Source: a virus | Taxonomy: Duplodnaviria; Caudoviricetes | IMG/VR virus record: IMGVR_UViG_3300038393_002510 | Coordinates: 1-62,811 of that record | Reading direction: 5' to 3' (one strand) | DNA length: 62,811 bases | Part shown: one piece after another, positions 2,112 through 41,034 of the stretch | Numbering within the stretch: position 1 is the first letter of the stretch | Layout of the letters: each line of letters starts with the position of its first letter | The notes under the pieces: model-generated | Told to the model about the DNA's origin: nothing | What the model saw: only the letters and a program-made list of their open reading frames with translations | Database searches by the model: none | Translations under genes and position numbers: made by a program

Positions 2112-2596
2112 GCGCCGTCCTCCGGGTCCAGGTCCGGGTCCTCGGCGTCCATGTCGATGTAGACGGGCGCGTCGGTTGCCTCGAAGGCGGCCGCCGTCGG
2201 CGAGCCGATGCGTGAGAGCACCTCGACCTTGCCTTCGCAGAGGTCGGTGAGGTTCCGCTCCAGGACCTTGAGCGAGCCGAGCATCCGGGCGGCGCCGTCG
2301 GCGACCGAGAGCCCGATGGGCAGCGAGACGTGCGCCTCGAAGACCTTGTCGGCCTCGTTCCAGGTGATCGCCGCGATGCCGCGGGTGAGGCCTTCCTCGA
2401 AGTCCTCGACGAGGCCGGTGACGACCTTCAGGCTCTCGGTGTCGACCGTGCCCTCGGGCAGCTCCTCGGTCTCAGCCTCCTCGGGCGGCGGCTCGTAGGG
2501 CGCCCGGGTGAAGATGTGGAACACCTTCGGGGCGTCCGGGTCGGCCGACACCTCGGTGAAATACTTCTTGCGCAGGTCGTTGAGGGCATCGCTCAT
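2108..2596 (-). CDS. acidic hypothetical protein
   Basis: Coupled ORF with normal codon usage. Confidence 0.7.
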   Translation of the reverse strand: MSDALNDLRKKYFTEVSADPDAPKVFHIFTRAPYEPPPEEAETEELPEGTVDTESLKVVTGLVEDFEEGLTRGIAAITWNEADKVFEAHVSLPIGLSVADGAARMLGSLKVLERNLTDLCEGKVEVLSRIGSPTAAAFEATDAPVYIDMDAEDPDLDPEDGA

Positions 2597-2619
2597 GGGT
2601 GTGTCAGTCCTGACTTACC

Positions 2620-3303
2620 TCAGATGCCGAACTCGGTGAGGAAGCCCATGAAGGCCTCCGCGCCCTTCTTGCCGGTCTCGGCCTCGATCCGGGCCATGAA
2701 CGCCTTCACGCGCCGGCCGTCGGCGACCGACAGCTTGGAGAAGCCGAACACCTCGCCGAGCCGGGCCGGCGCGTCGTCCACGGCCGCGGCCTTGGCGGCG
2801 TTCTCGGTCTGCTGCTCCTGGACGGCCTCGCCGATGTCATCGACGAACGCCTCGTCCAGCATCTCGCCCGGGTCCTCGACCATGAAGTCGAGCTCCCGCT
2901 CGTCGAAGCCGAGGCTGCTCATCTCGATGCCGCCATCCTCGGCGAGCGCCGCGAGGCCCTGGCGCAGCAGGTCGGTGTCGACGTCGGTGTTGACCGCCTG
3001 GTTGTCGGAGAGCCGCAGCGCGTCGGCCTCGGCATCGGTGAGCCCCTTGAGCACGACGACCGGCACGGTGAGCATTCCCAGCTCGATCGCCGCCAGACGC
3101 CGGCCGTGGCCGTTGATGATCTCCTTGGTCTCGCCGCGCACGACGATCGGGTTCGTCCAGACGCCCCGGGCGCGGATGACGCCGGCGAGCTTCTTGGTCG
3201 TGGCCGGCGAGTGCTTCTTGGCGTTCTTGGCGTAGGGGACCAGGTCCGCGACCGGCCAGTGCTCCACGACCAGCTTCGAGAGGTCGATCTTAGGCGTCGT
3301 CAC
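2620..3303 (-). CDS. ParB/Srx N-terminal domain protein
   Basis: LVPYAKNAKKH, PIVV, IINGHGRRLAA, LSDN. Confidence 0.9.
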   Translation of the reverse strand: MTTPKIDLSKLVVEHWPVADLVPYAKNAKKHSPATTKKLAGVIRARGVWTNPIVVRGETKEIINGHGRRLAAIELGMLTVPVVVLKGLTDAEADALRLSDNQAVNTDVDTDLLRQGLAALAEDGGIEMSSLGFDERELDFMVEDPGEMLDEAFVDDIGEAVQEQQTENAAKAAAVDDAPARLGEVFGFSKLSVADGRRVKAFMARIEAETGKKGAEAFMGFLTEFGI

Positions 3304-7732: not shown

Positions 7733-7983
7733 GCGAGCCTGAAGGTGACGCCCGCGCCAGCGGGCGGAAGCCGAGCGGGCTCGCGCCCCAAGGGCCAGAG
7801 CGTCGAGATCCTGAGAACCTGAGAACCGAGAGCCAAGGTCCGGGAGCCTGAGATCCGCTCGACCGTCCACCAAGGCTCAGTTCCAACTGAGCGGCTACCG
7901 TCCGCCAAGGGTCGATCTGGGGAGTGCGCGGCAACCCGTGGCATAGCCTCCGAGGGCGTGCGAAATCCCTAGGACTTCGCACT

Positions 7984-8016
7984 GTGTCCGACCCGCTACA
8001 GTGGCAGGTCGGACAC
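7984..8016. terminator. hairpin between convergent genes
   Basis: GTGTCCGACC / GGTCGGACAC 10-bp inverted repeat. Confidence 0.55.
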
Positions 8017-8021
8017 GCCCC

Positions 8022-8138
8022 TCAGTAATCGCAATCTGTGGCGAAGAAGTGACGTATGGCCCGAAGGACACGACGCTTGAAAGTGTAGTGGAGCGCGAAG
8101 GTCTCGGCGTTCATCTCGGCGATATCGGAGAGGGTCAT
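8022..8138 (-). CDS. small hypothetical protein (38 aa)
   Basis: MTLSDIAEMNAETFALHYTFKRR...; shares the leader motif found upstream of the 8948 gene. Confidence 0.45.
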   Translation of the reverse strand: MTLSDIAEMNAETFALHYTFKRRVLRAIRHFFATDCDY

Positions 8139-8251
8139 CTGTCTAACTCGCTTCTGTGTTGCTGACGATTACTTGTCGCACGCCCCCGACAGGGGGTCAA
8201 GTCACCGGTGACTTATCAACAGCGTGCGAGAAAATCGCATTAGCGCGTCGG

Positions 8252-8316
8252 TGAGACGCTTCGCGCGTCTCAGAGCTAGATCTGCTCACTGAGACGCTTC
8301 GCGCGTCTCAGTGAGC
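8252..8316 (-). terminator. two tandem hairpins downstream of the GG/CC-free gene
   Basis: TGAGACGC-TTCGC-GCGTCTCA (8252-8272) and a 14-bp perfect stem GCTCACTGAGACGC/GCGTCTCAGTGAGC (8284-8316); both are GG/CC-free. Confidence 0.7.
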
Positions 8317-8327
8317 TTGCTAGACGC

Positions 8328-8948
8328 TTAGAGCGCGACGCTCAGAGCTTTAGCTAGACGCTTCGTCGTTGCAGCGCTCAGATTGAGCGAATATGCAACT
8401 TCATTGCGTTCATCGCGCGTTTCTTTGAGAACGTCGAACATTTGCAGCGCGTTAATGCTGCTAGAGCTTTGCGTGTCAGCAGTATTCGCTGCAACAGTCT
8501 TAGCATAGCGCACGATATGTTGAGCTTTTGCAGCGTCAGCGCGCAGATCAACACACAGCGACGCTTGTGCATCTTTGTGCGTCATCGTCATGTTAGCTTT
8601 CGTGAGCTTAAGAGCAGTCAAGAAAATGCAGCGCGTGTAATTGTTGAGCGTATCAGCAGCAGCAGCAGAGCGCGCAATGTTAGCGACTTTCTGAGCGCTA
8701 TAGACGTTGAAGCGCTTGTTGCGACGCTCTTGACGATTGATAAAGTTAGCGTCGACGTTTGCGCTGTGCATAACTTTAACGACAGCTTCGTGAGAGAAAT
8801 CAATCGCGAGATTGTCGAGAGTCTTTTGAATGTTCGTGTTCTCAGCGTTGCACTCAATCTCATAAGACTTGCGAGCAGCGATCGACGTCTGAAGAGCGAC
8901 GCTGTAGTTCGCGACAGCTTCGTTCTGAGCGTTGTTGAGCTTCGTCAT
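8328..8948 (-). CDS. GG/CC-free gene; 206-aa putative winged-helix protein lacking Gly, Pro and Trp; paralog of 10253-11194
   Basis: ATG at 8948 (MTKLNNAQ...). Aligns with 10253-11194 (NIQKTL/NIHKTL, VDANFINR/VDPSFINR, FNVYSAQKVA/YNVYAVDKVA, TQSSS/TQASS, TKRL). Confidence 0.85.
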   Translation of the reverse strand: MTKLNNAQNEAVANYSVALQTSIAARKSYEIECNAENTNIQKTLDNLAIDFSHEAVVKVMHSANVDANFINRQERRNKRFNVYSAQKVANIARSAAAADTLNNYTRCIFLTALKLTKANMTMTHKDAQASLCVDLRADAAKAQHIVRYAKTVAANTADTQSSSSINALQMFDVLKETRDERNEVAYSLNLSAATTKRLAKALSVAL

Positions 8949-9249
8949 GACTGTGTCTCTCTGTGTGTGTGTTGCTGACGATTGAGAGAATACAGAGTCG
9001 GCAGATCGGCTCAAGAGCACAAAGCGAGAACAGAGCGAAAAAGTCAGCGGGAGGTGATTATTTTTGATGGGACGCACTTTCTCGTGCGGAGTGCGGAAAT
9101 GCCACTCGACGGGCGAGCGGAACTCCGTGGAGCCAGGATGGATTGTGCGCAATCGAATTGGGCACAACTCGATTGGGGTCAATTCAATTGGGGTCGATCG
9201 AATCACGCCCGATGGGCTCGGGCTCGATCGAGTCGTGCCCGACGCTTCC

Positions 9250-9490
9250 GCCCCATGGCGCCCCATGGGAGCGACCCCATGGCTACCTACCAAGCGGGGC
9301 CCCTAGCCGTTCCTAAAATCCGCAGCCGGAAGAGTCCAGCCCCACGGTGGCCCGAGGCGACCCACGGTGCCCCATGGGATCAGCCCCAGGAAGCCCCAGA
9401 ATTGGCCCAGGAGCGGCTCCATGGGTCTCGGAGCTGTCCATGGTGCTCCGGAGGCTCCCGTGGGCGTCCCTGGCGCTCCCATGGGGTTTG
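9250..9490. repeat. CCATGG/CCRYGG cluster 1
   Basis: CCATGG at 9253, 9263, 9277, 9372, 9419, 9438, 9479. Confidence 0.8.
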
Positions 9491-9503
9491 CCCGACACGA
9501 AGA

Positions 9504-9530
9504 AGGGGCAGCCCGGGATGGACTGCCCCT
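9504..9530 (-). terminator. intrinsic terminator
   Basis: AGGGGCAG/CTGCCCCT stem followed by a pyrimidine tract on the minus strand. Confidence 0.6.
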
Positions 9531-9557
9531 CGCGCTACGCGGGCGCGGTGACTGGGA

Positions 9558-9854
9558 TCAGAACTGCTCCTCGCGGAGCATCTCCTTCTGGAAGCGGGCA
9601 CGGGCGCGGAGGCGGTTGCGCTCGACGCGGGCGGTGCGGTGCGCGTAGCTCGCGGCCCGGGTCGCCTGGCCCATCGTGACGACGTTGCGCTCGGCGTCGA
9701 GGAGCTGGGAGAGGCTCAGGAGGTTCGAGCGGGCCTGGGCGGTGATCTCCCGGGCGTGGGCGCGCTGCATGTCGCGCGTCTCGGTCTGGAGGCTGTCGAG
9801 GTAGTCGGCGCACTCAGCGAAGCGACGGGCGACGGAAGCGATGAACTTGGTCAT
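9558..9854 (-). CDS. hypothetical helical protein
   Basis: Start MTKFIASVARRF at 9854. Confidence 0.7.
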   Translation of the reverse strand: MTKFIASVARRFAECADYLDSLQTETRDMQRAHAREITAQARSNLLSLSQLLDAERNVVTMGQATRAASYAHRTARVERNRLRARARFQKEMLREEQF

Positions 9855-10039
9855 GACTTGCTCTCGACTAGGTGAAGCGCTGCGCTTCGTTGTTGACGAG
9901 ACTGTTCTATCAAGTCGTGACGAGCTTGTGCGCGGAAGACCGAAGGATCTGCTTGGCGCTTTATGGGGCGGATACTTACGGGAGACGCTCTGTGGGAGCG
10001 GGGATCCCGGTATGGGCGGTCCGGGGCGCGGGGTCCGTC

Positions 10040-10200
10040 TCCCATGGGGTTCCATGGTAGGCCGTGGCCTGATGGACCAGGCCTGGCCTAGGCCTCATCC
10101 CATGGCCGGCCGTGGCGTTCGCGTGACCGTGATTCCCACCATGGCCGGCCATGGGAGCCTCTCCGACCGGAACCCCTAGCCGTTCCTGGATCCCATGGTG
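10040..10200. repeat. CCATGG/CCRYGG cluster 2
   Basis: CCATGG at 10042, 10052, 10100, 10139, 10149, 10193; CCGTGG at 10062 and 10110. Confidence 0.8.
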
Positions 10201-10212
10201 GATCCGAGCCAG

Positions 10213-10240
10213 AGAGAAAGGGAGCCTCGCGGGCTCCCCT
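10213..10240 (-). terminator. intrinsic terminator
   Basis: GGGAGCC/GGCTCCC stem followed by TTTCTCT on the minus strand. Confidence 0.65.
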
Positions 10241-10252
10241 CCCCTCTCGGTG

Positions 10253-19801: not shown

Positions 19802-20037
19802 GCCTCGCGCCTCTCGATGACGGCCTGCACGTTCTCCGGGCGGGCAGCGAGGATCGCCGCCTTGCACGCCTTCATCATCAAGCCCTGCTCGGCCCGGCTG
19901 TAGGTCTCCCAGGCCAGGACGGGGCACTCCTTGTTCGGGTGGAGCCGCACCCAGGCCCGGCGCCATTCGGCGAGCCAGGACTGGGTAGCGATCTCCAGCG
20001 CCGTCAGGGAGAGAGCGGACGCCGGAGACGGCGCCAT
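19798..20037 (-). CDS. hypothetical protein
   Basis: Coupled ORF. Confidence 0.6.
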   Translation of the reverse strand: MAPSPASALSLTALEIATQSWLAEWRRAWVRLHPNKECPVLAWETYSRAEQGLMMKACKAAILAARPENVQAVIERREA

Positions 20038-20579
20038 CAGGCGGCGCGCCCGATCGTCGCCGGGCCGCGCGAGACGCGACCCTGCAGGCCGATGCGGATC
20101 AGCGCCTCGGCGTGAGCCTCGGCCAGGTAGCCCGGCAGCACGACCGTGAGCCGCGCCTCGCCGAGCTGGGCGGTGAGGTGGTCGATCACGTCGTCGAGGA
20201 GCTTGGTCTGCTTCGCGTAGGCGTCAGCGATGCGGCCCTGCTCGACCGAGTCCACCTTGTAGGCGGCGAGCTCCGTCTCCAGGTCGTCGCGCTCCTGGCG
20301 CAGCTCGTCGACCATCTCGGAGAGGACGTTGCGCTCGCCGGCCAGGGCGAGGATGTTGACGCCGTGCTCCTGGCCGAACCGGCGCCAGCCGTCGCGGATC
20401 CGCTCGATGTAGGCGAGCGCATCGACCGTGCGGCCGTCGATGAAGTTCTCGGCCCGGATGGCGTAGGCCCGCGCCTCCTTGTCGGCGTTCCGGATGATCG
20501 AGCGGCTGTAGAGGACCGCAGCGCCGATGGTGGCACCGCTGAAGACGGCGGCGAAGATCGAGGAGGTAATCGGGTCCAT
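20037..20579 (-). CDS. N-terminal TM plus coiled-coil protein
   Basis: Hydrophobic N-terminus; GGAG RBS; preceded by promoter and operator motifs. Confidence 0.7.
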   Translation of the reverse strand: MDPITSSIFAAVFSGATIGAAVLYSRSIIRNADKEARAYAIRAENFIDGRTVDALAYIERIRDGWRRFGQEHGVNILALAGERNVLSEMVDELRQERDDLETELAAYKVDSVEQGRIADAYAKQTKLLDDVIDHLTAQLGEARLTVVLPGYLAEAHAEALIRIGLQGRVSRGPATIGRAA

Positions 20580-20642
20580 GTGGCTTCTCTCCGTGGTGTG
20601 AGTAAGTGCTGACTGACTATAGCGAGGGCGCTTCGGGGTTTC

Positions 20643-21560
20643 TCAGAGCATGTGCGGGATGAGCGCGAGCCCGCACACGATGGCGATGAGGAAGCTGGCG
20701 ACGGCGTAGCCGACACGCAGCCTCCCGGCCGGCGACAGCCCGTAGGGGAGCTTGATGGCCTCGGGCAGCGGCGTCGGGGTGAACCGCTCGCCGAGCTTGA
20801 GGTGCTGGCTCGCGGTCGCGGCGACCTGGATGAGGGTCGGCTTGTTGCCGAGCGCGACGCCGAAGCCCCAGAACTGGCCCGGGTCGAGGTCGCGCAGACC
20901 AAGCGCCTCGTCGCTCTTGAGCGGGAAGCCGAGGTTGTTGGCCGCGGCGTTGCGATCGAGGACCTGCCCGACCCGGCCGACGAGCCAGGTGTTGCACTCG
21001 CCGGTGGCGTCCTTGGTGATCTTGGCGAGCCGCTGGGTGCAGAGGATGCCGGTGAAGCCGCGCTTCCGGCCCTGGCTCATCAGCGTGCAGATGGCGCGGC
21101 GCGAGCTGCCGGCCGGCCCCGATTGCGGGGCGTAGCGGTGCGCCTCGTCGAGCACGACAAAGGCCGGCTGCCAGAGAGCGCGCGGCACGGTCATCATGGC
21201 GTTGAGGAACGAGGCGATGAACTCGCGCTGCTGGTCGAGGTGCTCGGTATCGTCAAACTGGATGATGACCGAGGTCTTGGTCTTCAGGATCCAATCCACG
21301 AGCGTCTTGGCGGATCGCGGCCGGAGCATGTCGGCGTAGGGGCCGCCCACGATCACGTAGGGGTGGAGCTGGCGCAGAGTGTGGAACTCCTGCTCCGGGT
21401 CGATGATGATCTGGACGCCCTTGCCCCAGAGCTGCTCCAGGACCTTGCGCACCGTGTGGGTCTTGCCCGAGCCGGTGTTGCCGATGATCGCGAGGTGGGT
21501 GCCGAGCAGCTTGTCGCTGTCGAGCACCACATCCTGTCCCGCCTCGTCGTGCCCGATCAT
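20643..21560 (-). CDS. short HerA/FtsK-like (DUF87) ATPase with C-terminal TM helix
   Basis: HLAIIGNTGSGKT, IDPEQEF, LDEAHRYAP, GRKRG, TQR. Confidence 0.85.
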   Translation of the reverse strand: MIGHDEAGQDVVLDSDKLLGTHLAIIGNTGSGKTHTVRKVLEQLWGKGVQIIIDPEQEFHTLRQLHPYVIVGGPYADMLRPRSAKTLVDWILKTKTSVIIQFDDTEHLDQQREFIASFLNAMMTVPRALWQPAFVVLDEAHRYAPQSGPAGSSRRAICTLMSQGRKRGFTGILCTQRLAKITKDATGECNTWLVGRVGQVLDRNAAANNLGFPLKSDEALGLRDLDPGQFWGFGVALGNKPTLIQVAATASQHLKLGERFTPTPLPEAIKLPYGLSPAGRLRVGYAVASFLIAIVCGLALIPHML

Positions 21561-21641
21561 GCCAACTTGCTCACTTGCTGCTTTCGATAGCGAGACAATG
21601 CGCGAACCAAAGCAGGCAAGCTACTGGCACGTATAGGCTTT

Positions 21642-21830
21642 TCAGTCCTCGCTCTCGCAGAACTGGATCGAGAAGGGCGTCTCCACGCCCTCCTTCACGG
21701 CCTTCTGGACGGCGTCGTCCATGCGCGGGACGGGCCCCTGCCACCGGCCGCCCTTCTTCGGGAGCCGGAAACGCACCGACCCGGTCTTGGGGTCGGCGAG
21801 CCGGATCTTGAGGACCGGCCGCTCGCTCAC
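21642..21830 (-). CDS. hypothetical protein
   Basis: GTGA overlap; VSERPVLKIRL... Confidence 0.55.
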   Translation of the reverse strand: MSERPVLKIRLADPKTGSVRFRLPKKGGRWQGPVPRMDDAVQKAVKEGVETPFSIQFCESED

Positions 21831-22237
21831 GCGGCCTCGTCCAGCAGATCCTCGCTGCACACGCCGTCGGCGAGCTTGCGCTCCAGCCGCGCCTTGAAGT
21901 GGTCGACGGACTTGGACAGCACCCGGTCGATCTCGGCGCTCTCGCAGTGGTCCGCGGAGATCCCGGCCGTGTCGCACAGAGCGAGCACCGAGATGCCGAC
22001 GCCGCCGACCTCCTGGCCGATCTCACCGGGTGGGTTGGCGTAGACCTTGTCCACGAGGCCGGCGATCTTCGCCTTGGGGTAGCCGCAGGCCTGGGCGAGC
22101 TCCAGGGCCTCCTCCAGGACCCGCTCGGCCCGGAAGCGCAGGTTGAGGGTGCGGGCGCCAAACACCCGGGTGATCCAGTCCTTGACGGTGGCCTGGCGCT
22201 TGTCCCGCGTGAAGCGGGTCTGAGACGGAACGGACAC
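21827..22237 (-). CDS. MazG-like nucleotide pyrophosphohydrolase
   Basis: RVLEEALELAQA...QEVGGV. Confidence 0.6.
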   Translation of the reverse strand: MSVPSQTRFTRDKRQATVKDWITRVFGARTLNLRFRAERVLEEALELAQACGYPKAKIAGLVDKVYANPPGEIGQEVGGVGISVLALCDTAGISADHCESAEIDRVLSKSVDHFKARLERKLADGVCSEDLLDEAA

Positions 22238-22310
22238 GGTTCTCTCCCGATAAGTCAGTGGTTACTGATGCGGATTGGCAGCAGGGCGCGCGACAGCGCC
22301 CTCCCCTCCC

Positions 22311-22583
22311 CTAGTTCAAGCTGCCCAGGTCGATGCCCTCGCCGACGACGGCCGGGTCGCTCGCCATGCGCTCCAGGATCGCCATCACCTCGGGGAACTT
22401 GAGCGCGACGGCCAGCGCCATGAGCTTCTTGCCCTGCGCGATCTGGGCCGGAGTCAGGTCGCCTTCGATGCCGGTCGAGAACACCTTAAAGTTGCCATCG
22501 GCCTTGAGAATGATGCCGGCGTCGCCGTCCTCGATCGGGGCCGATACGACGTTCTCCAGGGTCAAAAGAGAGTTTGCCTTCAC
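22311..22583 (-). CDS. hypothetical protein
   Basis: AAGGA RBS; preceded by a GCTATAG -10 element. Confidence 0.65.
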   Translation of the reverse strand: MKANSLLTLENVVSAPIEDGDAGIILKADGNFKVFSTGIEGDLTPAQIAQGKKLMALAVALKFPEVMAILERMASDPAVVGEGIDLGSLN

Positions 22584-22696
22584 GCTGAGATCCTTACGTT
22601 GTGGAGTGCTGTGGATGAGGTGCGCTGTGCGCGCTTCGCATCGCTTCTATAGCGCGAGCGCGCTTGATTTTCGCAGGGTTCTGTAGGAACTAATTG

Positions 22697-22879
22697 CTAT
22701 GAGAACAGAACGGGAACAAGCGATGCCGAGTCGGGGTATCCCAGAAGGTCAGAAGCCCCGGAGGGTGTCCGGGGCTTCCGCTGATAGACCTTCTTGCTCG
22801 CGACGATCCGACGGCGCAGGCCGGGGTCGGCCAGAGCTTTCGCGTAAGGGTTCCGCTTGGGTGGGGAAGTTGATTTCAC
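22697..22879 (-). CDS. ArfA-like (alternative ribosome rescue factor) small protein
   Basis: KRNPYAKALADPGLRRRIVASKKVYQRK resembles the ArfA core; GTG at 22879 with GAGG RBS; in-CDS hairpin at 22752-22778. Confidence 0.6.
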   Translation of the reverse strand: MKSTSPPKRNPYAKALADPGLRRRIVASKKVYQRKPRTPSGASDLLGYPDSASLVPVLFS

Positions 22880-23130
22880 GATTCGCCTCGCTTTCTGAAT
22901 ACATGTTGAACGTAACACGCTCAAGTTGGCGCGTATCGCGCGAAAAGCGCCTCCACTATCTTGCCATACGTTTCTTGCATGGCGTCACTGCCGACGGCGT
23001 GAAGGCCCCTTCCACTTTTTCCGTGACCGATTTATGGACACAGTCCAACCCGGGGAATGAGGTGGAGCGTCGGGGCATACCCGCCCCTCGCCAACCCGGC
23101 GCACACACTTCTGAGGGGGCTAAATCCACG

Positions 23131-23691
23131 ATGACCGAGGTTGCGAGCTACCGTTTCCACGCGATGACGGAAGAGCTGGCCGCTCGTATCGAGGGCACAC
23201 TGCATGATTTCGCCCGTGAACACGGGCGGGTCTACAACGCCATGGATATGCACCAATCGCATCTGTCCGTGAAAGATCTTGCCGAGCAAGCGGTTATGTT
23301 CGGCATGAACGTGTGGGCGCACAGCCCCGAAGACCACCAAGGCAACCTACCTGGGAACGTTGTCCCTCTCACCAGGCGCAAGCCTGCGGGTGGGCCGCGC
23401 ATGCTGCGGACCGCTCTCCAGACCATCACTGCCGTGATCGCAACGACCGTGGTGGCTGCGGCCACGACCGAGGCTGTGAGCCTGCCCGGCCTCCACTACG
23501 TCACCCACTTCATCTACGCCAAGCACGCGCCACCGCTGGTTGAGCGCACCGTTGAGGACCATGGCCAACTGAGGCGGGTCGTTTTCCAGCGCATCCCGGG
23601 CGAGCCGTTCGAGGTCGTCCACGTCATCAGCTCCCGGCCGGTGGACGACCCCATGATCGCCACCGCCCCGGACCACGAGCAGGAGGGCTGA
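23131..23691 (+). CDS. hypothetical membrane-associated protein
   Basis: GAGGGG RBS before ATG 23131; central hydrophobic segment. Confidence 0.6.
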   Translation: MTEVASYRFHAMTEELAARIEGTLHDFAREHGRVYNAMDMHQSHLSVKDLAEQAVMFGMNVWAHSPEDHQGNLPGNVVPLTRRKPAGGPRMLRTALQTITAVIATTVVAAATTEAVSLPGLHYVTHFIYAKHAPPLVERTVEDHGQLRRVVFQRIPGEPFEVVHVISSRPVDDPMIATAPDHEQEG

Positions 23692-23692
23692 G

Positions 23693-24013
23693 CTACCAGC
23701 TCCCCCAGGCGTAAGCGTCCTCCTCGACCCGCTCCAGCGCCAGCTCGGGCAGGATCTCCGGGGCCTCGTCGGGCTCCTGTGCCGCATTGGCGATTTCGAG
23801 CAGCCGGGCCACGTAGCCCGGCAGGGCTTTGCGGGCGCGCCGATACTGCGGCGGCGTCATCCGGTCCTGATACCTGGGCAGCTTGGCGTAGATGTCCGCG
23901 AGGAACGCGGCATCCGGTCCGTCGAAGCCCGCGGGTGCGAGCGCCTTGATGGCCCGCTTCACCGCCGCGTCGGAGCGCTGGATCAGCGCCAGGATCGTCT
24001 CTTGCGTGTGCAT
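23693..24013 (-). CDS. hypothetical protein ending in WGSW
   Basis: GGAG RBS; normal codon usage. Confidence 0.7.
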   Translation of the reverse strand: MHTQETILALIQRSDAAVKRAIKALAPAGFDGPDAAFLADIYAKLPRYQDRMTPPQYRRARKALPGYVARLLEIANAAQEPDEAPEILPELALERVEEDAYAWGSW

Positions 24014-24025
24014 CGGGCGCTGCTC

Positions 24026-24242
24026 CTAGCCGGCGAGCTGGACGGTGACGACGGCGTCGAGGTCGACGAAGGCCAGCTCGTCGTTCGTGCCGATCACCAG
24101 GACCGCCCCGGCCGGACCCTCGATGACGCGGTGAGCACCGGCGTAGGTGCGGTTCTGGGTCTGGACGCTGATCTCGAAACCCTCGCCCTGCCGGAATTTC
24201 TCGATCTCGCCGAGGATGGTGTTGAACTTCCCCAGGTGCATG
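24026..24242 (-). CDS. small hypothetical protein
   Basis: AGGAG RBS before MHLGKF. Confidence 0.65.
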
Positions 24243-24356
24243 ACGTTGTTAGCTCCTGTCTGTTTCGACATTCAGAAGCTACGACAACCATTGCGCTGTG
24301 TCGGGTGGCATCTAATGGCATGTGCTATACTTCCACGATCACAAGGAGATCGTGTC

Positions 24357-24710
24357 ATGTATGAATACCGTGCCACTCTGAAGAAGGTCGTCGATGGCGA
24401 TACCGTGGATGTGGAGCTCTCGCTGGGCTTCGACATCTACCAGAGCCATCGCCTGCGGCTCTACGGGGTCAACACCCCGGAGCTTCACGACAGGGACGCG
24501 ACCATCCGCGCGAAGGCGCTGGAGGCCAAGCAGTTCCTCATCGACACGCTGCCGACCGCGGCCGGCGCCATCACCGTGCGGTCGCACAAGGACGCGGGCG
24601 ACAAGTATGGCCGCTACCTCGCTGAGCTGTTCCTGCCGGAGCAGGAGGTCAGCGTGAACCAGCAGCTTGTCGCCCGCGGGTTGGCCGTCCCCTTTATGAC
24701 GGACGGCTGA
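24357..24710 (+). CDS. thermonuclease (SNase family)
   Basis: KVVDGDTVDV, RLYGVNTPE, DKYGRYLA, VNQQLV..GLA. Confidence 0.92.
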   Translation: MYEYRATLKKVVDGDTVDVELSLGFDIYQSHRLRLYGVNTPELHDRDATIRAKALEAKQFLIDTLPTAAGAITVRSHKDAGDKYGRYLAELFLPEQEVSVNQQLVARGLAVPFMTDG

Positions 24711-24716
24711 GTTCGA

Positions 24717-25097
24717 TCAGACGGCCGGGGCGCCCGGGACCGCGAACACGGGCGCCACGTAGGGCACGTTCACGTAGACCGCGGTGTAGAGCGTGCGCGG
24801 GTCGATCGCAGCAGCGGCCTTACCCTTCGGGGCGCGGGCCTCGAGGGCGTCGACCAGGTTCCGGACGTCGTAGGCCTTGCCCAGCGCCGAGACGTGGGGC
24901 TGACCCATGCCGAGGAACTGGCCGAGCGGGCCGATCGCCACGTTGACGACGGTGCCCTCGACCTCGCCGTCGGTCGTGGTGATCTTGACGGCCTCGCCGT
25001 TGCGGTAGGTGGCGTAGGCGTCAGCGCCGAGGAACAGCTCGAAGAAGCCAGCGCCGGTCTGGACCAGGGCCTTGGGCGCGTTGACGGTGATGTCCAT
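24717..25097 (-). CDS. hypothetical protein
   Basis: Normal codon usage. Confidence 0.7.
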   Translation of the reverse strand: MDITVNAPKALVQTGAGFFELFLGADAYATYRNGEAVKITTTDGEVEGTVVNVAIGPLGQFLGMGQPHVSALGKAYDVRNLVDALEARAPKGKAAAAIDPRTLYTAVYVNVPYVAPVFAVPGAPAV

Positions 25098-25111
25098 GTC
25101 GTTCTCTGCTC

Positions 25112-25561
25112 TCAGTTTGAGGCCACCCGCATCACGCGGCGGCCATACTCGGTGCAGGACGGCCGAGCGCCAATCCCGCGGTTATACAGGGAGACCCCGG
25201 AGCACCCGGCCCCTCCCCGATTGATGGCCGCGCGCAGGTAGCGCATTGCGGCTGAGATGTTCTGGCGGCAGTCGAAGACGTTGCGCACGCCCATCGCCCG
25301 CGCCGTGGAGCGGATGAGCTGCCCTGCCCCGGCCGCACTCGAATGCGGGTTCCGGGCGTGGCAGTCGCCGCCGCTCTCGACCTTGATGATCGCGTGACCG
25401 ATCCGCACCGGCACGCCGGCCGCGCGGGCTTCCTGGGTCACGATGGACCAGACGTTGCCGCTGGCCCGGTGATGACGATGATGGCGATGCCGGGCTTCGG
25501 CCTCCCCGGTCGTGGCGATGGTCGTCAGTGCGACCAGGGCCGCAATCGTTGTGAGGCGCAT
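25112..25561 (-). CDS. secreted lytic transglycosylase (SLT domain)
   Basis: Signal peptide; VESGG, GAGQL, YN.G motifs. Confidence 0.85.
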   Translation of the reverse strand: MRLTTIAALVALTTIATTGEAEARHRHHRHHRASGNVWSIVTQEARAAGVPVRIGHAIIKVESGGDCHARNPHSSAAGAGQLIRSTARAMGVRNVFDCRQNISAAMRYLRAAINRGGAGCSGVSLYNRGIGARPSCTEYGRRVMRVASN

Positions 25562-25819
25562 CCGCCCTCTCCTTCTCTCGCTCGCTGAGTAAGTCAGCGC
25601 TGACTGATTATAGCGAAGCGCGCTCGGGTTTGACGAAGCGCCCTGCCTGATCGTCAGAAGGTGGCTGGGATCGCGTGCGCGCGTCGCTGAGACGCTTCAG
25701 CTTGCGCGCGCTGTCTGCGTCGCTCGCGCGCGTGCCGAGTCTGTGTGAGCGTCTGAGCGCATTCTAGCAGCGCGGCACTCGATCGCGCGAGCGTGCGCTG
25801 TCTGCAAGCGTTCATGCGG

Positions 25820-26020
25820 GCCTGTGGGCAGGCGGGCAGACCGGCATGCAGATAATTTCGGCGTCGCGGCTTGGCGGTTACAGACAGGTAACGATGGCTG
25901 TGCTGAAACCGAGGCAGGCGAGTCGGCTCGTGGGATTGTGGGCAGGCCCGCAGATCCACAGGCCCGCAGATCCGCAGGCGGGCGAACGGACACGAAGGCG
26001 AGACGACAGGCAGGAGTGCA
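25820..26020 (+). repeat. TGTGGGCAGGC-type repeats upstream of parA (operator/centromere)
   Basis: Copies at 25823 and 25937 plus CCGCAG repeats. Confidence 0.6.
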
Positions 26021-32817: not shown

Positions 32818-34515
32818 TCAGCCCTTGAGATTGCCCAGGGCGATGTGGCGCGCGAGGCTCTTGCGGCACATGCCCAGCGCCTTGTCGATCTGCCGGAGCG
32901 TGGCGCCCGCGCTGAGCATCTCCTGCGCCTTGTCGAGCTTGGCGCGATACTCGGGCGTGATCGTCTGGACCGGAGCCTCGGCGCGGCGCCCTTCCTTGAT
33001 CCGCGGGGCCGTCTTGACGTTCTGCGCCTGGGCGCTCGCCGACGGCTGCATCGGGACAGGGGAGGGCGGCGCCGGGCTCTGGGCGGGGATGTCCTCGGCC
33101 TTGGTGACGATCGCCTTGACCAGGGTGTTGTTGACCCCGAGCGAGCCGAACTGGACCGACTTCACCCGCACGCGGCTGGCGCGGCCGTCGTTCGAGACCC
33201 GCTCCACCGAATAGTCGCCGTCGGGGAGCTTGCTCGAACCCACGATCCGCACGATGTCGCCGGGCTTGGCGAGCTGCCAGGGCTCGGTGCCGGTCGGCTC
33301 GGTCTGCTGCGGGGCAGGGGAGGGGGCTGCCGTCACCGTCAGGCGATCAATCGAAACCCAGGCGCCGCTCACCAGCGCGGTGCCGCCGTCGACCGCAGCG
33401 ACCGGGACCGCCTTGCCCATGCCGTCGATCTTCACGAGCGCGTCCTTCACCAGGCCCGGCGCCACCTGCGGCTCATTCCCGGCCTGCACGTCGGTGACGG
33501 CCTGCTTGGCGTTGCGGATCGCCTTCTTGATCGTCTTCGGGTCGACCGCCTTGGGCTTCGACTTGATGACGCGCGCCTTGTTGCGCGGGGCCGTCACCTC
33601 GACCTTCTCCAGCACCTTGACCGTGTGCTCGCCCTGCCTGCCGACGAGGACCTCTTCGATCACGCCGATGTGCTGGCCGGCGATGACCTCGGCGACGACG
33701 CCCTTGGCGCCCTTCGCGGTGAGCGCCGAGCGCTTGGCCGAGACCGCCTCGTGCGAGCCCTGATCGAGCGCTGCCACGATGTGATAGGCGAGCACGCGCA
33801 TCTTGGACGACTCGTGGTGCGGGACCGCAACGACGTCCTCGGGCCGGACCTTCACGAGCAGGATGCGGTTGCCATACTGGCCGTAGGAGGCCGCGCAGAC
33901 GTGCAGGCCGGTGCCGCAGCTATCGCGGGTGTCGAGGTAGTCCTTCTTGTCCATGTAGACGCGCGAGCCGATCCGCTGGCGCACCTTCTTGGTGTGGTGA
34001 TCGACGTAGTAGCCCTCGTCGCTCGCGGCATCGAGGAACTTGTAGAGGACGAGACAGCCGTCGTCGGCGAGCGGCAGATCGACCTTCTCCATGAAGCGCA
34101 GCACCTCCTGGGCGGTGTCCTTGTGCTGCACCTTGGCGAAGCGCTCCAGGAACGCCGCGAGGCCGGGCGAGCCCTCGTAGGCCGCGCGCTCGATGTGCTC
34201 GGTGAGGGTCTGGGCGTTCTCCAGCTTGTCGCCGGCGGCCGTGGTCAGCGCGATCTTGGACACGCCGTCCTCGACCTTCTCCTCGACCTTCATGGCGCCG
34301 CCGGTCGCCTCCTGAATGATCTTCGCGAGGCTGAACTCCTCGAGGTCCACCTCGATGGGCTCGCCACCCGCGCTCGCCAGCGGCAGCAGCACCGCCTTGA
34401 GCAGATCGCCGGTGCGCCAGGAGTCCTGGCCGTAGACCGCGCTCTGCCCGGTCGGGAAGAAGAGGGTGATGCCGTTCTTCGACGCGATGGCGCCGGATAC
34501 CTTCGTGAGTGCCAT
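32818..34515 (-). CDS. rIIB: rIIB-like protein with C-terminal HTH
   Basis: LPLADDGCLVLYK, SCGTGLHV, LVKVRPEDVVAVP, KMRV..Y; directly follows rIIA. Confidence 0.85.
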   Translation of the reverse strand: MALTKVSGAIASKNGITLFFPTGQSAVYGQDSWRTGDLLKAVLLPLASAGGEPIEVDLEEFSLAKIIQEATGGAMKVEEKVEDGVSKIALTTAAGDKLENAQTLTEHIERAAYEGSPGLAAFLERFAKVQHKDTAQEVLRFMEKVDLPLADDGCLVLYKFLDAASDEGYYVDHHTKKVRQRIGSRVYMDKKDYLDTRDSCGTGLHVCAASYGQYGNRILLVKVRPEDVVAVPHHESSKMRVLAYHIVAALDQGSHEAVSAKRSALTAKGAKGVVAEVIAGQHIGVIEEVLVGRQGEHTVKVLEKVEVTAPRNKARVIKSKPKAVDPKTIKKAIRNAKQAVTDVQAGNEPQVAPGLVKDALVKIDGMGKAVPVAAVDGGTALVSGAWVSIDRLTVTAAPSPAPQQTEPTGTEPWQLAKPGDIVRIVGSSKLPDGDYSVERVSNDGRASRVRVKSVQFGSLGVNNTLVKAIVTKAEDIPAQSPAPPSPVPMQPSASAQAQNVKTAPRIKEGRRAEAPVQTITPEYRAKLDKAQEMLSAGATLRQIDKALGMCRKSLARHIALGNLKG

Positions 34516-36920
34516 TACCGTGAGGTCTCCTTGCTGCGGGCAGCGTGGCGCTTCGCCAGCTCCTCGGTGAGGTGGATGAAGTCGTCGAGCTGGTCGCCCG
34601 CGAGCCCGGACGGGTTCACGTTGAGGTTCGCCAGCAGTTCGAGGTGGTCGGTGCGCAACCACCAGCGCTCGGAGCCGAAGGTCCGGGCTTCGAGAGGCAT
34701 CGCGAGTTCGCGGTATTCCTCATAGTAGCGCTGGATGAGCGCCTGCTCGTCCGCGTCCATGTGCTGCCCGCGGACGTGCCGCTGATGGAAGACGAGCCGG
34801 GCCAGCATCCAGAGTTCGTAGGCCTGGTCGCGGTCGGCGCTCTGCTTGTAGGGCTCGCGCACGGCCGCGTGAGCGATCCGCCGGCTGGTCCGCATCATCT
34901 TGGATGAGAAGCCGGTCCTGCGCCCGTCGTCGCTGCCGTCGAGCGCCCGGACAGCCATCCGGGCGTAGAAGGCCTCGTAGGGCTTCGGCCGCTTGGTGCG
35001 CGCCCGCAGCTTCTCCAGGATGATCTCCTCGATCCGCCGGACGCCCTGCGCCTCATACCACTCGAAGCGCTCGCGCTTCGTCGCCACCGCGACCCGGCCG
35101 ATGAGCTTGCGCGCCAGGTTCGCGCGCAGCGCCTCGTGCATCGTGTCGTGGATCACCAGCGCCGGCTGGCTGTCGTTCGTCGTGCCCCTGGCCGTGAACA
35201 CGGCGTCCGGTGTGAAGAACTTCTGGGAGCGGTTGAGCGTCCGGACGTCGTGGCACGGCCCGTCCGCCGGGATGAAGCGGCGCGGCGTGTGGCCGGAGAT
35301 CCCGAACAGCAGTGGGAACTCAGGGGTCTCGGGGCCGTAGAAGCGCGGCGCCTCCTTCTTCTCCCGCTTGACCTTGGGCGGCGCTGCGACCTCGTCGACC
35401 TTCACCTTGTAGTGCGCGGCCCGCGCCTTCAGCGCGTCGATCTCGGCCGGCGGCAGCCGGGCCGTGGAGATCGCGAAGCCGTCGTTCATGTTGTCGGAGA
35501 TGAGCTTCTGGGTCGGCGCCAGGGTGATGCGCGGCTCGAAAAGCCGATGGTGGTAGAAGGGGTAGGCGTCGGGCGACTTGATGCCCTTCAGCCGCGCGCT
35601 GCTGTGGTCTCGGGTGAGCAGCAGGCCGGCGAGCGGGCCGGCCACACGGACGATGCGCTTGCGCAGGCGGAAGTAGCGCTCGGCGATCAGGTCGTTGGTG
35701 AGCGCGTCGCCACCGCGAACGCTGTAGGAGTATGAGTTGCACTGCGGGAGCAGGTTCTTGAGCGAGCGCCGGCTGTCCGAGAAGCGCTGGACCGCCTTGA
35801 GGACGAAGTCGCGCCGGGAATACTGCCCCTCGCGCACCCAGAACCGGGCCCGGTCCATCGCGATGGCGTCGGGGCCGACGAAGTCCTGACCGCTGGTCCA
35901 GACCAGGTTGCGCTTGTCGCGGTGCAGGTGCAGCGTGTCGCGGGTGAGCTTGTCCATCAGCTCGCCCAGCGCGATGTCGCGCTTGCCAGGCATCGCCGCC
36001 TCAATCTCGCGGATCGCGTTGTCGAGGAGCTTGCCGATCACCTCGACCGTGATCTCGTCGTAGGACAGGCTCTCGCGGCTCGGCGTCACGCCGATGGTCG
36101 AGGGCTGCGCGTAGAAGACGATGGGCGCCGAGCCCCGGCCGACGAGTTCCTTGATGCGCTCCATCCTGAGGTGGAGGCTCGGGTTGCTGTCGATCGGGTA
36201 GATGACGTTGGCGTAGAGGAGCCTCAGCCGGTTGGAGCTCTGGTTGGCAATGCTCCCGAAGACGCCGTAGCCGACCTCCTTGAGCCCCGTGAAGTCCGGG
36301 GCCTCCAGCGTCGCGCCGTTGAGGCGCACGTTCATGCCGCCCTCGCGCACGATCTCCTTGATGCAGCGCTCGATCTTGGAGTGCATGCCGGGCGCGAGCG
36401 GGATCGAGACCTTCAAGCCCCGGGCGTCCGTCGGCACCTTCATCATGCGCTTGGCGGACGGGCAGTCGTCCTCTTCCGGGTCGCTCGCGACCATCGCGTA
36501 GAGCGACTTGGTGCCGGCGTGGTTGCTCTCGACCGTGAAGTGATCGGTGATCGAGAAGGGCGCCTTGCACCCTAAGCCGAAGCCGCCGGTGACGCGCTTG
36601 TCCTTGGCCTTCTGAGAGCCGAACAGCGTGCAGTAGATCTCCACGATCTTCTCGTGGGGAATGCCGTTGCCGGAGTCGGCGACGATCATCTCGTCTTCGG
36701 TCAGCGTGACATCGACCGGCTCGTCGGGGAGCCCGGCCTCGATGTTGGCGTCGACCGCGTTGCAGATGACCTCGCGGACGGTGGCGCGCTCTTTGTCCCG
36801 ATAGAGCGTATCGGACATGATCTTGAACGCAGCCGCGGACGCCGCGACTTGGAATTTTGCAGCTTTCTCGCCGCCGATGGCGACAAAGCTGTCGCTCTCG
36901 TTGATGTGGGTTACTTGCAT
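34515..36920 (-). CDS. rIIA: rIIA-like protein with GHKL/HATPase N-terminus
   Basis: LY....VRE.ICNAVDA, D.GNGI, GGFGLGCKAPFS, TPSRESLSY. Confidence 0.88.
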   Translation of the reverse strand: MQVTHINESDSFVAIGGEKAAKFQVAASAAAFKIMSDTLYRDKERATVREVICNAVDANIEAGLPDEPVDVTLTEDEMIVADSGNGIPHEKIVEIYCTLFGSQKAKDKRVTGGFGLGCKAPFSITDHFTVESNHAGTKSLYAMVASDPEEDDCPSAKRMMKVPTDARGLKVSIPLAPGMHSKIERCIKEIVREGGMNVRLNGATLEAPDFTGLKEVGYGVFGSIANQSSNRLRLLYANVIYPIDSNPSLHLRMERIKELVGRGSAPIVFYAQPSTIGVTPSRESLSYDEITVEVIGKLLDNAIREIEAAMPGKRDIALGELMDKLTRDTLHLHRDKRNLVWTSGQDFVGPDAIAMDRARFWVREGQYSRRDFVLKAVQRFSDSRRSLKNLLPQCNSYSYSVRGGDALTNDLIAERYFRLRKRIVRVAGPLAGLLLTRDHSSARLKGIKSPDAYPFYHHRLFEPRITLAPTQKLISDNMNDGFAISTARLPPAEIDALKARAAHYKVKVDEVAAPPKVKREKKEAPRFYGPETPEFPLLFGISGHTPRRFIPADGPCHDVRTLNRSQKFFTPDAVFTARGTTNDSQPALVIHDTMHEALRANLARKLIGRVAVATKRERFEWYEAQGVRRIEEIILEKLRARTKRPKPYEAFYARMAVRALDGSDDGRRTGFSSKMMRTSRRIAHAAVREPYKQSADRDQAYELWMLARLVFHQRHVRGQHMDADEQALIQRYYEEYRELAMPLEARTFGSERWWLRTDHLELLANLNVNPSGLAGDQLDDFIHLTEELAKRHAARSKETSR

Positions 36921-39774: not shown

Positions 39775-40220
39775 GGGCTTCTCGAAAAAGGAGGGGTCGA
39801 GGGGCGAACCAGGACCCCTCCGGGTGTTTCTCTTATCAGTCAGTGCTGACTGACTTTCTCGTTATAGCGCGCGACGCTCGGGTTTTCGCGTGGGTTGCAC
39901 CGGTATCTCGTCGAACGGATAGGCGTGACCACGCCGAGGGGTGCTGAGGCGTTCAGAAGGCAGAGTTACCAATTTCGAATTAGGCTGAGCGCATAAACGG
40001 AGCATATTGGTATGTTAAGCGTCCCTCGATCGGGATAATATACAGAATTTGACTAAGACGCTTGATTTTTATCCTCACCTTCATGACCATGGAAGGGTGA
40101 GAGCTCGCAGCCGCGACTGAGTCGCCCGTAGCCGCAGCTACTCTTCAATGGGCTCAATCTTGGAGTAGCCCAACGAGAACGATCCTGGTCATCGCTTTCC
40201 AATTAGAAGAGGGACAGAAA

Positions 40221-40805
40221 ATGCGTGCCTATGCCTCTATTTCGCTTCTTGTAGTTATGTGGGCATTTCCAGCTCTGGCGGATTCACGACAATGCACTGT
40301 AGCCAAAGACAAAGGTAATGCTGCGGCATCAGAATATTATGACCCTCGCATAAAACAAGTTGATGATGCAATCCGGGATATAAAGGATAAGGGCGGCAAT
40401 CCAGATGATATCGCCATCAGGGTGGGCGACAAGTTTCTTACATTCCCCGAGATACGCGCCAAACTAGCCAAGGATAAACAGATTGCGCTCGCGGCAGTGA
40501 CTACGCAGATAGATGAGTGCGAAAAAGGGATGAAACCTTATCAAGATTTAGTGAACGAATATGCAAACTTAGCTACAGGTGGAGTATTAAAAATGCTGCC
40601 GGGGAAGATGGGGTTCATCGACGTCTCTGATATCCTTGCTGGTTATCCACTCGGTGGGCCTGATGCCTTCGTGCCAAAGGCCCGCGAGCAGATCCTAAAA
40701 GCTTTAGGAATGGGAGGGAAAAATAACACTGCTGGAAAAATTTTTAGAGATCCGATCAAAGAGGGTATCATTCGACCGATACAATGTATTTTCGGTTGTA
40801 AATAA
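40221..40805 (+). CDS. low-GC accessory (moron) secreted protein
   Basis: Signal peptide ending ALA; AT-rich codons; own AT-rich upstream region; opposite strand to its neighbours. Confidence 0.8.
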   Translation: MRAYASISLLVVMWAFPALADSRQCTVAKDKGNAAASEYYDPRIKQVDDAIRDIKDKGGNPDDIAIRVGDKFLTFPEIRAKLAKDKQIALAAVTTQIDECEKGMKPYQDLVNEYANLATGGVLKMLPGKMGFIDVSDILAGYPLGGPDAFVPKAREQILKALGMGGKNNTAGKIFRDPIKEGIIRPIQCIFGCK

Positions 40806-40809
40806 ATGA

Positions 40810-40840
40810 GAAAACCCCGCAAGCGGAGCTCGCGGGGCTC
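40810..40840. terminator. hairpin between the moron and RNR
   Basis: CCCCGC...GCGGGG stem. Confidence 0.5.
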
Positions 40841-41034
40841 TCGATGTCGGGTGTCTTCCCAGCACCATCAGGCGTTTAGGCGACCGATATCTTCACACCG
40901 CGCGTGGCGATGATCTCGGCGAGCCGGTCGATGTCGACCGGGATCCCCGATGCTGGCGTTGAACGTGGCCAGCTGGATGAAGGGGCGCACCCACCAGCGA
41001 AGGTGGATGCGGACCCGGACGTGCTGCGTCGCCA

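Follow-up and report, generated by a model that had tools for sequence, protein, structure and literature searches.

A putative ArfA-like gene with an in-frame hairpin in an uncultured phage genome

We examined a small open reading frame (ORF) on the minus strand of an uncultured virus record, IMGVR_UViG_3300038393_002510, whose 62,811 nt we refer to throughout as the window. The ORF, at 22697-22879, encodes a 60-aa product, MKSTSPPKRNPYAKALADPGLRRRIVASKKVYQRKPRTPSGASDLLGYPDSASLVPVLFS, with a resemblance to the ribosome-rescue factor ArfA of E. coli, and a stable stem-loop lies within its reading frame, ahead of the stop codon. We first list the features of the locus and then consider what the gene is, how widely its layout recurs among relatives and what the layout may mean.

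Features of the ArfA-like gene, in the direction of transcription. All lie on the minus strand; the basis of each assignment is given in parentheses.

22886..22889, minus strand: Shine-Dalgarno-like GAGG, 6 nt upstream of the GTG (predicted, read from the sequence)
22697..22879, minus strand: ArfA-like ORF, 60 codons, GTG start, TAG stop at 22697-22699 (translation; leave-one-out family hidden Markov model)
22769..22858, minus strand: conserved basic core, residues 8-37 (KRNPYAKALADPGLRRRIVASKKVYQRKPR), aligned to E. coli ArfA ~12-44 (profile alignments)
22787..22794, minus strand: optional lower stem, 5' arm (AGAAGGUC), 8 bp (minimum-free-energy fold; uncertain)
22750..22780, minus strand: in-frame stem-loop, 13 bp of which 11 are perfect, 5-nt loop, codons 34-44; proposed mRNA 3'-end site (folds; nucleotide conservation with the related locus L016)
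22743..22750, minus strand: optional lower stem, 3' arm (GACCUUCU) (minimum-free-energy fold; uncertain)
22700..22747, minus strand: tail, codons 45-60 (LLGYPDSASLVPVLFS), hydrophobic at its end (grand average of hydropathy, GRAVY; no conservation in the family)

Relationship of the peptide to ArfA

The translation of the minus-strand ORF contains the peptide string KRNPYAKALADPGLRRRIVASKKVYQRK quoted in a preliminary description of this DNA, and the E. coli ArfA core quoted there agrees with the E. coli K-12 arfA translation we fetched. The first 37 residues carry 12 lysines and arginines and have a pI of 11.7. The tail is hydrophobic, as that description had also claimed, its GRAVY being 0.82 over residues 44-60 and reaching 1.95 over the final 8.

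Using tblastn and pattern scans, we recovered small ORFs with the same core in phages and in 35 IMG/VR contigs. The phages include OLIVR5, IC12, LG08 and IG49 (Agrobacterium/Rhizobium), ORM_20 (Ochrobactrum), phiM12, phiN3, phiM7 and phiM19 (Sinorhizobium) and the T4-like Acinetobacter phages Acj61, Ac42 and ZZ1. A tblastn search of phages with a canonical short relative, P0065, returned no match, probably owing to the short query and low-complexity filtering. Two 42-aa IMG/VR peptides, P0002 and P0003, share 58% identity with the window peptide across 33 residues; they contain the motif KGKGSY-x-RK, score 42.9 and 42.7 bits on the Pfam ArfA model (PF03889, cut-off 25.5 bits) and match the E. 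coli ArfA chains in the PDB at 4.5e-5. Acj61 p003 scores 47.3 bits on a second Pfam family, DUF7230 (PF23876, cut-off 27 bits).

We aligned 22 members that lack the GKG insert of these canonical peptides, the window peptide included (alignment A5). When the A5 profile was compared with 177,635 distinct PDB sequences, the top six matches were all E. coli ArfA chains (E 9e-6 to 4.5e-5). The preliminary description had proposed a profile comparison with ArfA as a check, and hhalign of A5 against E. coli K-12 ArfA gave a probability of 93.7% (E 1.8e-7, 43 columns), pairing window residues 4-46 with ArfA 8-53. With the window peptide left out, the profile of the remaining 21 still matched its frame, at 55.9 bits (E 1.9e-16), and gave no other match among 1,233 six-frame segments; the next-best frame reached 5.7 bits. 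The PHROG scan contributed no more than a weak match to the unnamed phrog_20887 (E 3.5e-4).

The family is large and straddles existing models. Among 1.84 billion cluster representatives, 1,564 matched at E≤1e-3, of which 61 reached E≤1e-10. An eight-member profile retrieved 112 proteins, 55 of them labelled PF23876 and 9 labelled PF03889 by our own count. When the A5 members were scanned singly at E≤1, DUF7230 was matched by 11/22 and Pfam ArfA by 9/22; as members match either family, these profiles indicate that Pfam ArfA and DUF7230 form a continuum. Judged by the leave-one-out score, the six ArfA chains at the head of the PDB search and the score of P0002 on Pfam ArfA, the ArfA-like identity put forward earlier is supported. 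We conclude, at the level of sequence profiles, that the window peptide truly belongs to the ArfA superfamily, as a divergent member that curated models miss, and that its subfamily is GKG-less and overlaps DUF7230.

Residues were paired by the hhalign alignment, and their roles were taken from section 7 of PMC8012679, the part of that review on which we draw. Four A5 columns are invariant (window A13, K29, Y32 and R34) and three are at least 90% conserved (N10, L16 and K35). The window peptide shares with E. coli ArfA the core order N-x-x-x-x-x-L, P-x-[FL]-R-x-R-[VI], KK and Y-x-R-K, and it keeps the helix region, Pro19 and the basic segment K29, K30, Y32, R34, K35 and R37. By this alignment L21 would occupy the place of ArfA F25, and R23-R24-I25-V26 that of the RF2-contacting strand Q27-E30; the V26 column holds V in 19/22 members. 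The GKG of the E. coli KKGKGSY, in contrast, is deleted, leaving the loop three residues shorter in the window peptide. A complex prediction of residues 1-45, made from the A5 alignment with E. coli release factor 2 (RF2), yielded no answer (score 0.00); the factor was a stand-in, and the ArfA-RF2 contact is normally ribosomal.

The hairpin before the stop codon

The preliminary description reported a perfect 11-bp stem inside the ORF, and we recovered it exactly: GAAGCCCCGGA/TCCGGGGCTTC with a 5-nt loop, at 22752-22778. One G-U and one C-G pair extend it to 13 bp (22750-22780), and the stop codon lies 50 nt further downstream. The 36-nt segment holding the hairpin folds at -26.1 kcal/mol, compared with a mean of -9.4 (sd 3.9) for 20,926 minus-strand segments, making it the joint fifth-to-sixth strongest minus-strand fold in 62.8 kb. 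The surrounding 111-nt region has a z of -3.9 against 200 shuffles, none of which (0/200) folded as well. The optional lower stem, 22787-22794 paired with 22743-22750, would lengthen the helix to ~20 bp with a 7-nt bulge.

We also asked where the other strong hairpins of this phage lie. None of the other nine among the ten strongest on the minus strand (0/9) is inside a gene supported by GC content at third codon positions (GC3); five overlap a stop codon or follow one by no more than 200 nt, and four are in gene-free stretches. Because of this placement, strong hairpins look like 3'-end signals in the window phage. The hairpin at 22750-22780 is the exception among the ten, sitting inside an open frame. 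We considered whether it might terminate a plus-strand gene and rejected this reading: GC3 shows no plus-strand gene running into the hairpin, and a 330-aa plus-strand ORF (22699-23691) that overlaps the ArfA-like ORF is mostly a high-GC artefact, in which codon-position GC backs coding only from the ATG at 23131. The part so supported (186 aa, with no Pfam or PHROG match) and the ArfA-like gene are transcribed divergently.

To compare relatives, we took 45 loci (the window and 44 others), picked in each the 36-nt fold of lowest energy among those beginning no more than 30 nt past the conserved Tyr codon, and ranked it against all equivalent blocks of its own ~3-kb locus. A strong hairpin, with a 36-nt folding energy of -18 kcal/mol or lower, in the lowest 1-2% of blocks and wholly before the stop, is present in 11/45: the window, L016, the six loci of one IMG/VR lineage (L017, L019, L020, L027, L028 and L029), L013, and the Sinorhizobium phages phiN3 and phiM12. 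These hairpins start 6-15 nt after the Tyr codon. Another 6/45 have a moderate hairpin (L037, L021, L022, OLIVR5, IC12 and Acj61); the Acj61 stem overlaps the stop, whereas the other five end before it. The Tyr-anchored per-sequence folds cover 15 of 19 loci, with L049, L047, L046 and L003 (Acj61) coming from other fold scans only. The analysis as a whole drew on 53 loci.

The same layout appears in bacterial loci, which we found in contigs from metagenome-assembled genomes (MAGs) with a four-sequence alignment, A4. A Hyphomonadaceae MAG (L049) has an in-ORF 11-bp stem followed by a T-tract, a KHKH string and a hydrophobic tail, and a further bacterial MAG locus (L045) has an in-ORF 10-bp stem. 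A T-tract likewise follows the hairpin inside the ORF in phiM12/phiN3 and in L013. There are at least five distinct stem sequences in the family; between the window and the L017 lineage, for instance, three C-G pairs are flipped to G-C, with the flanking GGAAG/CTTCY base retained. Alignment of seven hairpin regions with MAFFT and RNAalifold gave an uninformative five-pair consensus, with 3' arms mis-registered and stems and loops of different lengths. No stop codon precedes the hairpin in any hairpin design we saw. The canonical-type copies of Caulobacter phage Cr30 and Roseobacter phage CRP-212 simply stop.

Two comparisons of close relatives single out the hairpin. Locus L016 is syntenic with the window, and nucleotide identity between the two is 41% in the N-terminal part of the ORF, 80% from the Tyr codon to the end of the hairpin and 44% in the tail. 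The two stems differ by a C-to-U change that keeps a G-U pair and by a 3-nt insertion that lengthens the stem. Among the loci of the L017 lineage, identity is 84-98% in the core and 100% in the hairpin; from 3 nt past the stem, it falls to 17-33% in 12/15 pairs. The six loci run into four unrelated downstream contexts, with stops anywhere between +66 and +243. Because identity collapses past the stem and stop positions vary, the conserved gene cassette of this lineage, as read from these alignments, ends at the hairpin and not at the stop codon. Tails do not align across the 22-member family, and the tail codons 45-60 of the window ORF are predicted to lie outside the active product. Taken together, the recurring hairpin-before-stop layout, the island of conservation with L016 and the end of L017 homology at the hairpin favor the earlier suggestion that the phage keeps the regulatory layout of arfA along with the factor. 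Many family members appear to retain the oddest trait of ArfA, a gene built for translation of an mRNA without a stop.

A proposed mechanism and its alternatives

We propose that the window gene encodes a divergent phage member of the ArfA superfamily, made from a non-stop mRNA by virtue of the in-ORF hairpin and acting in ribosome rescue gated by host tmRNA; we give this reading a probability of about 0.68. The precedent set by E. coli arfA and B. subtilis brfA, in the section of PMC8012679 used here, is that an in-ORF stem-loop leads to termination or to RNase III cleavage, and that tmRNA tags the product of the non-stop mRNA as long as trans-translation is not saturated. It is the truncated peptide that is active, filling the empty mRNA channel and recruiting RF2; the full-length tail of ArfA is hydrophobic and poorly conserved.

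In the window, the stable hairpin starts within the conserved Arg-Lys codons. The mRNA would end before the stop codon, either by hairpin-only termination, which is seemingly common at the gene ends of this phage, or by endonucleolytic processing, for example by RNase III, and the gene would therefore be translated from a non-stop mRNA. With tmRNA-SmpB capacity to spare in the host, the nascent peptide would be tagged and destroyed. If trans-translation were saturated, as might happen during mass mRNA decay in infection, a product of ~38-45 aa would escape. Its basic C-terminal part would enter the mRNA channel left empty in ribosomes that have stalled on truncated mRNAs, and its middle segment, LRRRIV (aligned to ArfA F25-E30), would recruit a class I release factor, RF2 by analogy. 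The release factor would free peptide and ribosome, and the phage, by means of a self-limiting factor, would maintain its supply of usable ribosomes. By analogy, a product with 6-13 residues beyond Tyr32 is plausible, because E. coli ArfA has no activity when cut one residue past Tyr39 (40 residues), the ribosome-bound factor shows 46-48 ordered residues (PMC8012679, same section) and family members that naturally terminate at a stop codon do so 6-9 residues past the Tyr.

Several results weigh against this proposal. Neither the peptide nor the six-frame window matched Pfam ArfA or DUF7230 at E≤10; NCBIfam returned nothing for the peptide, nor did phmmer of the single peptide against the PDB, and a word-indexed search of 5.8 billion proteins with the single peptide yielded one candidate, none scored and no relative. 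The coding signal is weak, with GC3 ~0.70 over 22710-22889 compared with at least 0.82 in GC3-selected genes. ArfA A18, which is required for RF2 activation in E. coli according to the section of PMC8012679 used here, aligns to window K14, a position that is K or R in most members, and the ArfA KH motif (K44-H45) aligns to R37-T38; the relatives P0044, P0049, L047 and L049 have RH or KH there. No T-tract follows the window hairpin (the following sequence is ACCTTCTGGG), and classical intrinsic termination there is therefore doubtful; a terminator scan of 22200-23300 passed over the hairpin, with no T-run following. The lower stem that would give an RNase III-sized helix is not kept in L016. 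Finally, 28/45 loci are without a notable hairpin and stop 4-10 residues past the core, so hairpin regulation is not universal in the family.

Some of these points would suit a gene expressed as a full 60-aa ArfA-superfamily protein from a stop-containing mRNA, with the hairpin acting as an intercistronic stabilizer, attenuator or processing site in a leftward operon and its position within the ORF carrying no regulatory meaning. The T-tract is absent here and after many other strong hairpins of the window phage, the 28 members without a hairpin use an ordinary stop, and the syntenic downstream gene at 22311-22583 may require read-through transcription. We nevertheless regard this as unlikely, because a stop precedes the hairpin in none of the designs seen, the island of nucleotide conservation is the hairpin and not the unconserved tail, L017 homology ends at the hairpin with stops scattered downstream, and full terminators with T-tracts occur inside the ORF in four lineages.

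A different function for the peptide seems to us less probable again. It could bind the vacant A site and mRNA channel as ArfA does, but as a takeover tool rather than for rescue, for example blocking tmRNA-SmpB so that phage products escape tagging, or working with another release factor or none. The loss of A18 and the KH motif and the shortening of the GKG-bearing loop by three residues fit such a role. So does the host background: a 2024 survey with nucleotide profiles, in the part of PMC11633108 consulted, found arfA in 0/2,376 alphaproteobacterial genomes, so that host RF2 may not suit ArfA. ArfA/RF2 pairs are described as species-specific in the section of PMC8012679 used here. However, nowhere is the family better conserved than in the segment aligned with the RF2 contacts (F25, Q27-E30), which reads RxR[VI]V, and chromosomal members in alphaproteobacterial MAGs share the ArfA-style non-stop layout, which fits backup rescue. 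That the ORF is simply an open frame arisen by chance between divergently oriented genes, with the hairpin an unrelated RNA element, we consider very improbable. It would account for the weak GC3, the want of a curated family match and the otherwise missing coding periodicity of 22584-23130, but it is contradicted by the 55.9-bit match, unique in the window, by the size of the family, by the synteny of the ORF in L016 and by a GAGG at the proper distance from the GTG.

Genome context, significance and known systems

The stretch is contained in sequencing runs labelled as soil metagenomes, none of the listed runs that contain it being recorded as RNA, and CheckV estimates the completeness of the record at 56%. 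Its GC content is ~67%, and the minus strand carries nearly all GC3-supported genes. PHROG matches include rIIA-like, rIIB-like, UvsX-like and SbcCD-like proteins and ribonucleotide reductase. The polymerase is of the DnaE type, with best matches in the Rhizobium phages B1VFA, RHph_Y2_11 and RHEph10 (58-60% amino-acid identity). As its closest matches are Rhizobium phages, the window phage likely has an alphaproteobacterial host. A blastn search of 20000-26000 against phage records gave no match.

The ArfA-like ORF sits within a 547-nt stretch, 22584-23130, where codon-position GC periodicity is weak, between a minus-strand gene and the plus-strand gene that begins at 23131 and ends at 23691. 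A scan of 22200-23300 for sigma-70 promoters found 0 sites. The neighboring minus-strand gene is the following.

22311..22583, minus strand: downstream 90-aa gene, function not assigned (GC3 0.90; a 91-aa homologue directly follows the ArfA-like ORF in L016)

The product of this gene has no Pfam or PHROG match. Further along, three GC3-supported genes downstream of the ArfA-like gene and co-oriented with it, is a gene for a 305-aa HerA/FtsK-like P-loop ATPase (20643-21560, minus strand), which matches Pfam DUF87 at 7.4e-15 and a PHROG annotated 'terminase large subunit' at 3.7e-23. Elsewhere, two islands of low GC, 8001-10000 (0.586) and 40001-42000 (0.574), stand out from ~0.67 in the rest of the window; the two strongest hairpins of the window lie in or adjoin them, at 8281-8316 and, with a T-tract, at 40807-40842, and 7733-10252 holds no GC3-supported gene. 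ARAGORN called a 94-nt tRNA-Arg (anticodon GCG) at 33335-33428 on the minus strand, within the rIIB-like ORF 32818-34662; it is probably a false call, because Rfam at gathering thresholds finds no RNA family (0) in the whole window.

The relatives' loci offered some observations of their own, including small genes that are unannotated or mis-annotated in published phage genomes. The ArfA-like ORFs of OLIVR5 (L001, 1498-1644), IC12 (L007, 1498-1644) and ORM_20 (L002, 1495-1692) are unannotated. The OLIVR5 position is covered by the opposite-strand hypothetical coding sequences gp165c and gp166c, the IC12 position carries an annotated 32-aa coding sequence in a different frame, and the ORM_20 ORF converges on an 'Rz-like spanin' gene. 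In phiN3 (L009) and phiM12 (L010), at locus positions 2500-3100, the second gene downstream of the ArfA-like one belongs to the RelA/SpoT family and the gene in between encodes a DNA methyltransferase, placing two translation-stress functions near each other. In all three Acinetobacter phages, Acj61 (L003), Ac42 (L008) and ZZ1 (L011), the DUF7230 gene has the same place at the left genome end, flanked by a glutathionylspermidine synthase gene and rIIA. In a Pelagibacteraceae MAG (L048, ~1620-1690), a sequence that by eye resembles the end of a tRNA gene occurs a few dozen bases past the ArfA-like ORF.

Descriptions of ArfA confine this backup rescue factor to gamma- and some betaproteobacteria. 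The family assembled here is present in alphaproteobacterial MAGs and in phages whose hosts are of the Rhizobium, Agrobacterium, Sinorhizobium, Ochrobactrum, Caulobacter, Citromicrobium or Acinetobacter type. Tentatively, and at somewhat less than even odds, we suggest that ArfA-like peptides, both GKG-less and canonical, are a widespread phage tool giving release-factor-dependent rescue to supposedly ArfA-less hosts, especially alphaproteobacteria (Rhizobiales, Caulobacterales, Sphingomonadales and SAR11), with synthesis wired to host tmRNA through the non-stop mRNA. If so, a phage could sense and counter the stalling caused by its own destruction of host mRNA or by RNA-cleaving abortive-infection defenses, and DUF7230 would be the missing ArfA of alphaproteobacteria and of Acinetobacter phages. 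Confirmation of the mechanism would mean that phages carry their own rescue factor gated by host tmRNA and would widen the range of ArfA-type rescue. S. meliloti with phiM12 and Citromicrobium with RXM are tractable systems for such work. In the open-access literature we found no account of a non-stop hairpin in phage arfA genes or of a link between DUF7230 and ArfA, and the term 'DUF7230' was in no open-access paper searched. Three points appear to be new: the tie between the DUF7230-like subfamily and ArfA, the occurrence of this subfamily in phages and MAGs of alphaproteobacteria, and the persistence of the non-stop architecture.

Among known systems, E. coli ArfA (YhdL, PF03889) is the obvious comparison, with a stem-loop before the stop and a hydrophobic, unconserved tail, as in the window ORF. 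The E. coli gene is chromosomal, whereas the window gene is phage-borne. Measured from the Tyr39 codon, the E. coli hairpin runs from +31 to +92 and the stop is at +102; the window hairpin begins only 6 nt past the Tyr codon, and the truncated product, ~16 residues past the Tyr in E. coli, is predicted to extend ~6-13 residues in the window. DUF7230 (PF23876) has in common with the window peptide its length, GKG-less core and basic character. Pfam lists no function for DUF7230, which the profiles described here tie to ArfA, and the window peptide itself falls below the model.

That phages carry ArfA is already in print as an annotation. Two phages of alphaproteobacteria, Citromicrobium phage vB_CbaS-RXM (g10; PMC8953757) and pelagiphage HTVC027P (gp30; PMC12753301), have ArfA-annotated peptides, and the parts of the two papers drawn on here do not mention a hairpin or non-stop regulation. 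Unlike the window peptide, RXM g10 carries the canonical G-x-G-S insert and matches the Pfam ArfA model, as gp30 presumably does too. RXM g10 has an 11-bp in-ORF stem at +9 to +37 and a stop at +87, where the window stop also falls. The Sinorhizobium genes phiM12 gp232 (AB690_gp232) and phiN3 gp277, annotated as hypothetical, are GKG-less members from cultured phages of a tractable host. Each has an in-ORF GC-rich hairpin of 10-11 bp followed by a T6 tract, with the stop 60 nt past the Tyr codon; this is the intrinsic-terminator form, with the T-tract absent in the window, and the peptides are ~30-36% identical to that of the window. B. subtilis BrfA, as described in the section of PMC8012679 used here, has no outstanding sequence similarity to ArfA except the KH motif, and it too is a small, RF2-dependent rescue factor regulated by trans-translation, with a rho-independent terminator inside its ORF, before the stop.

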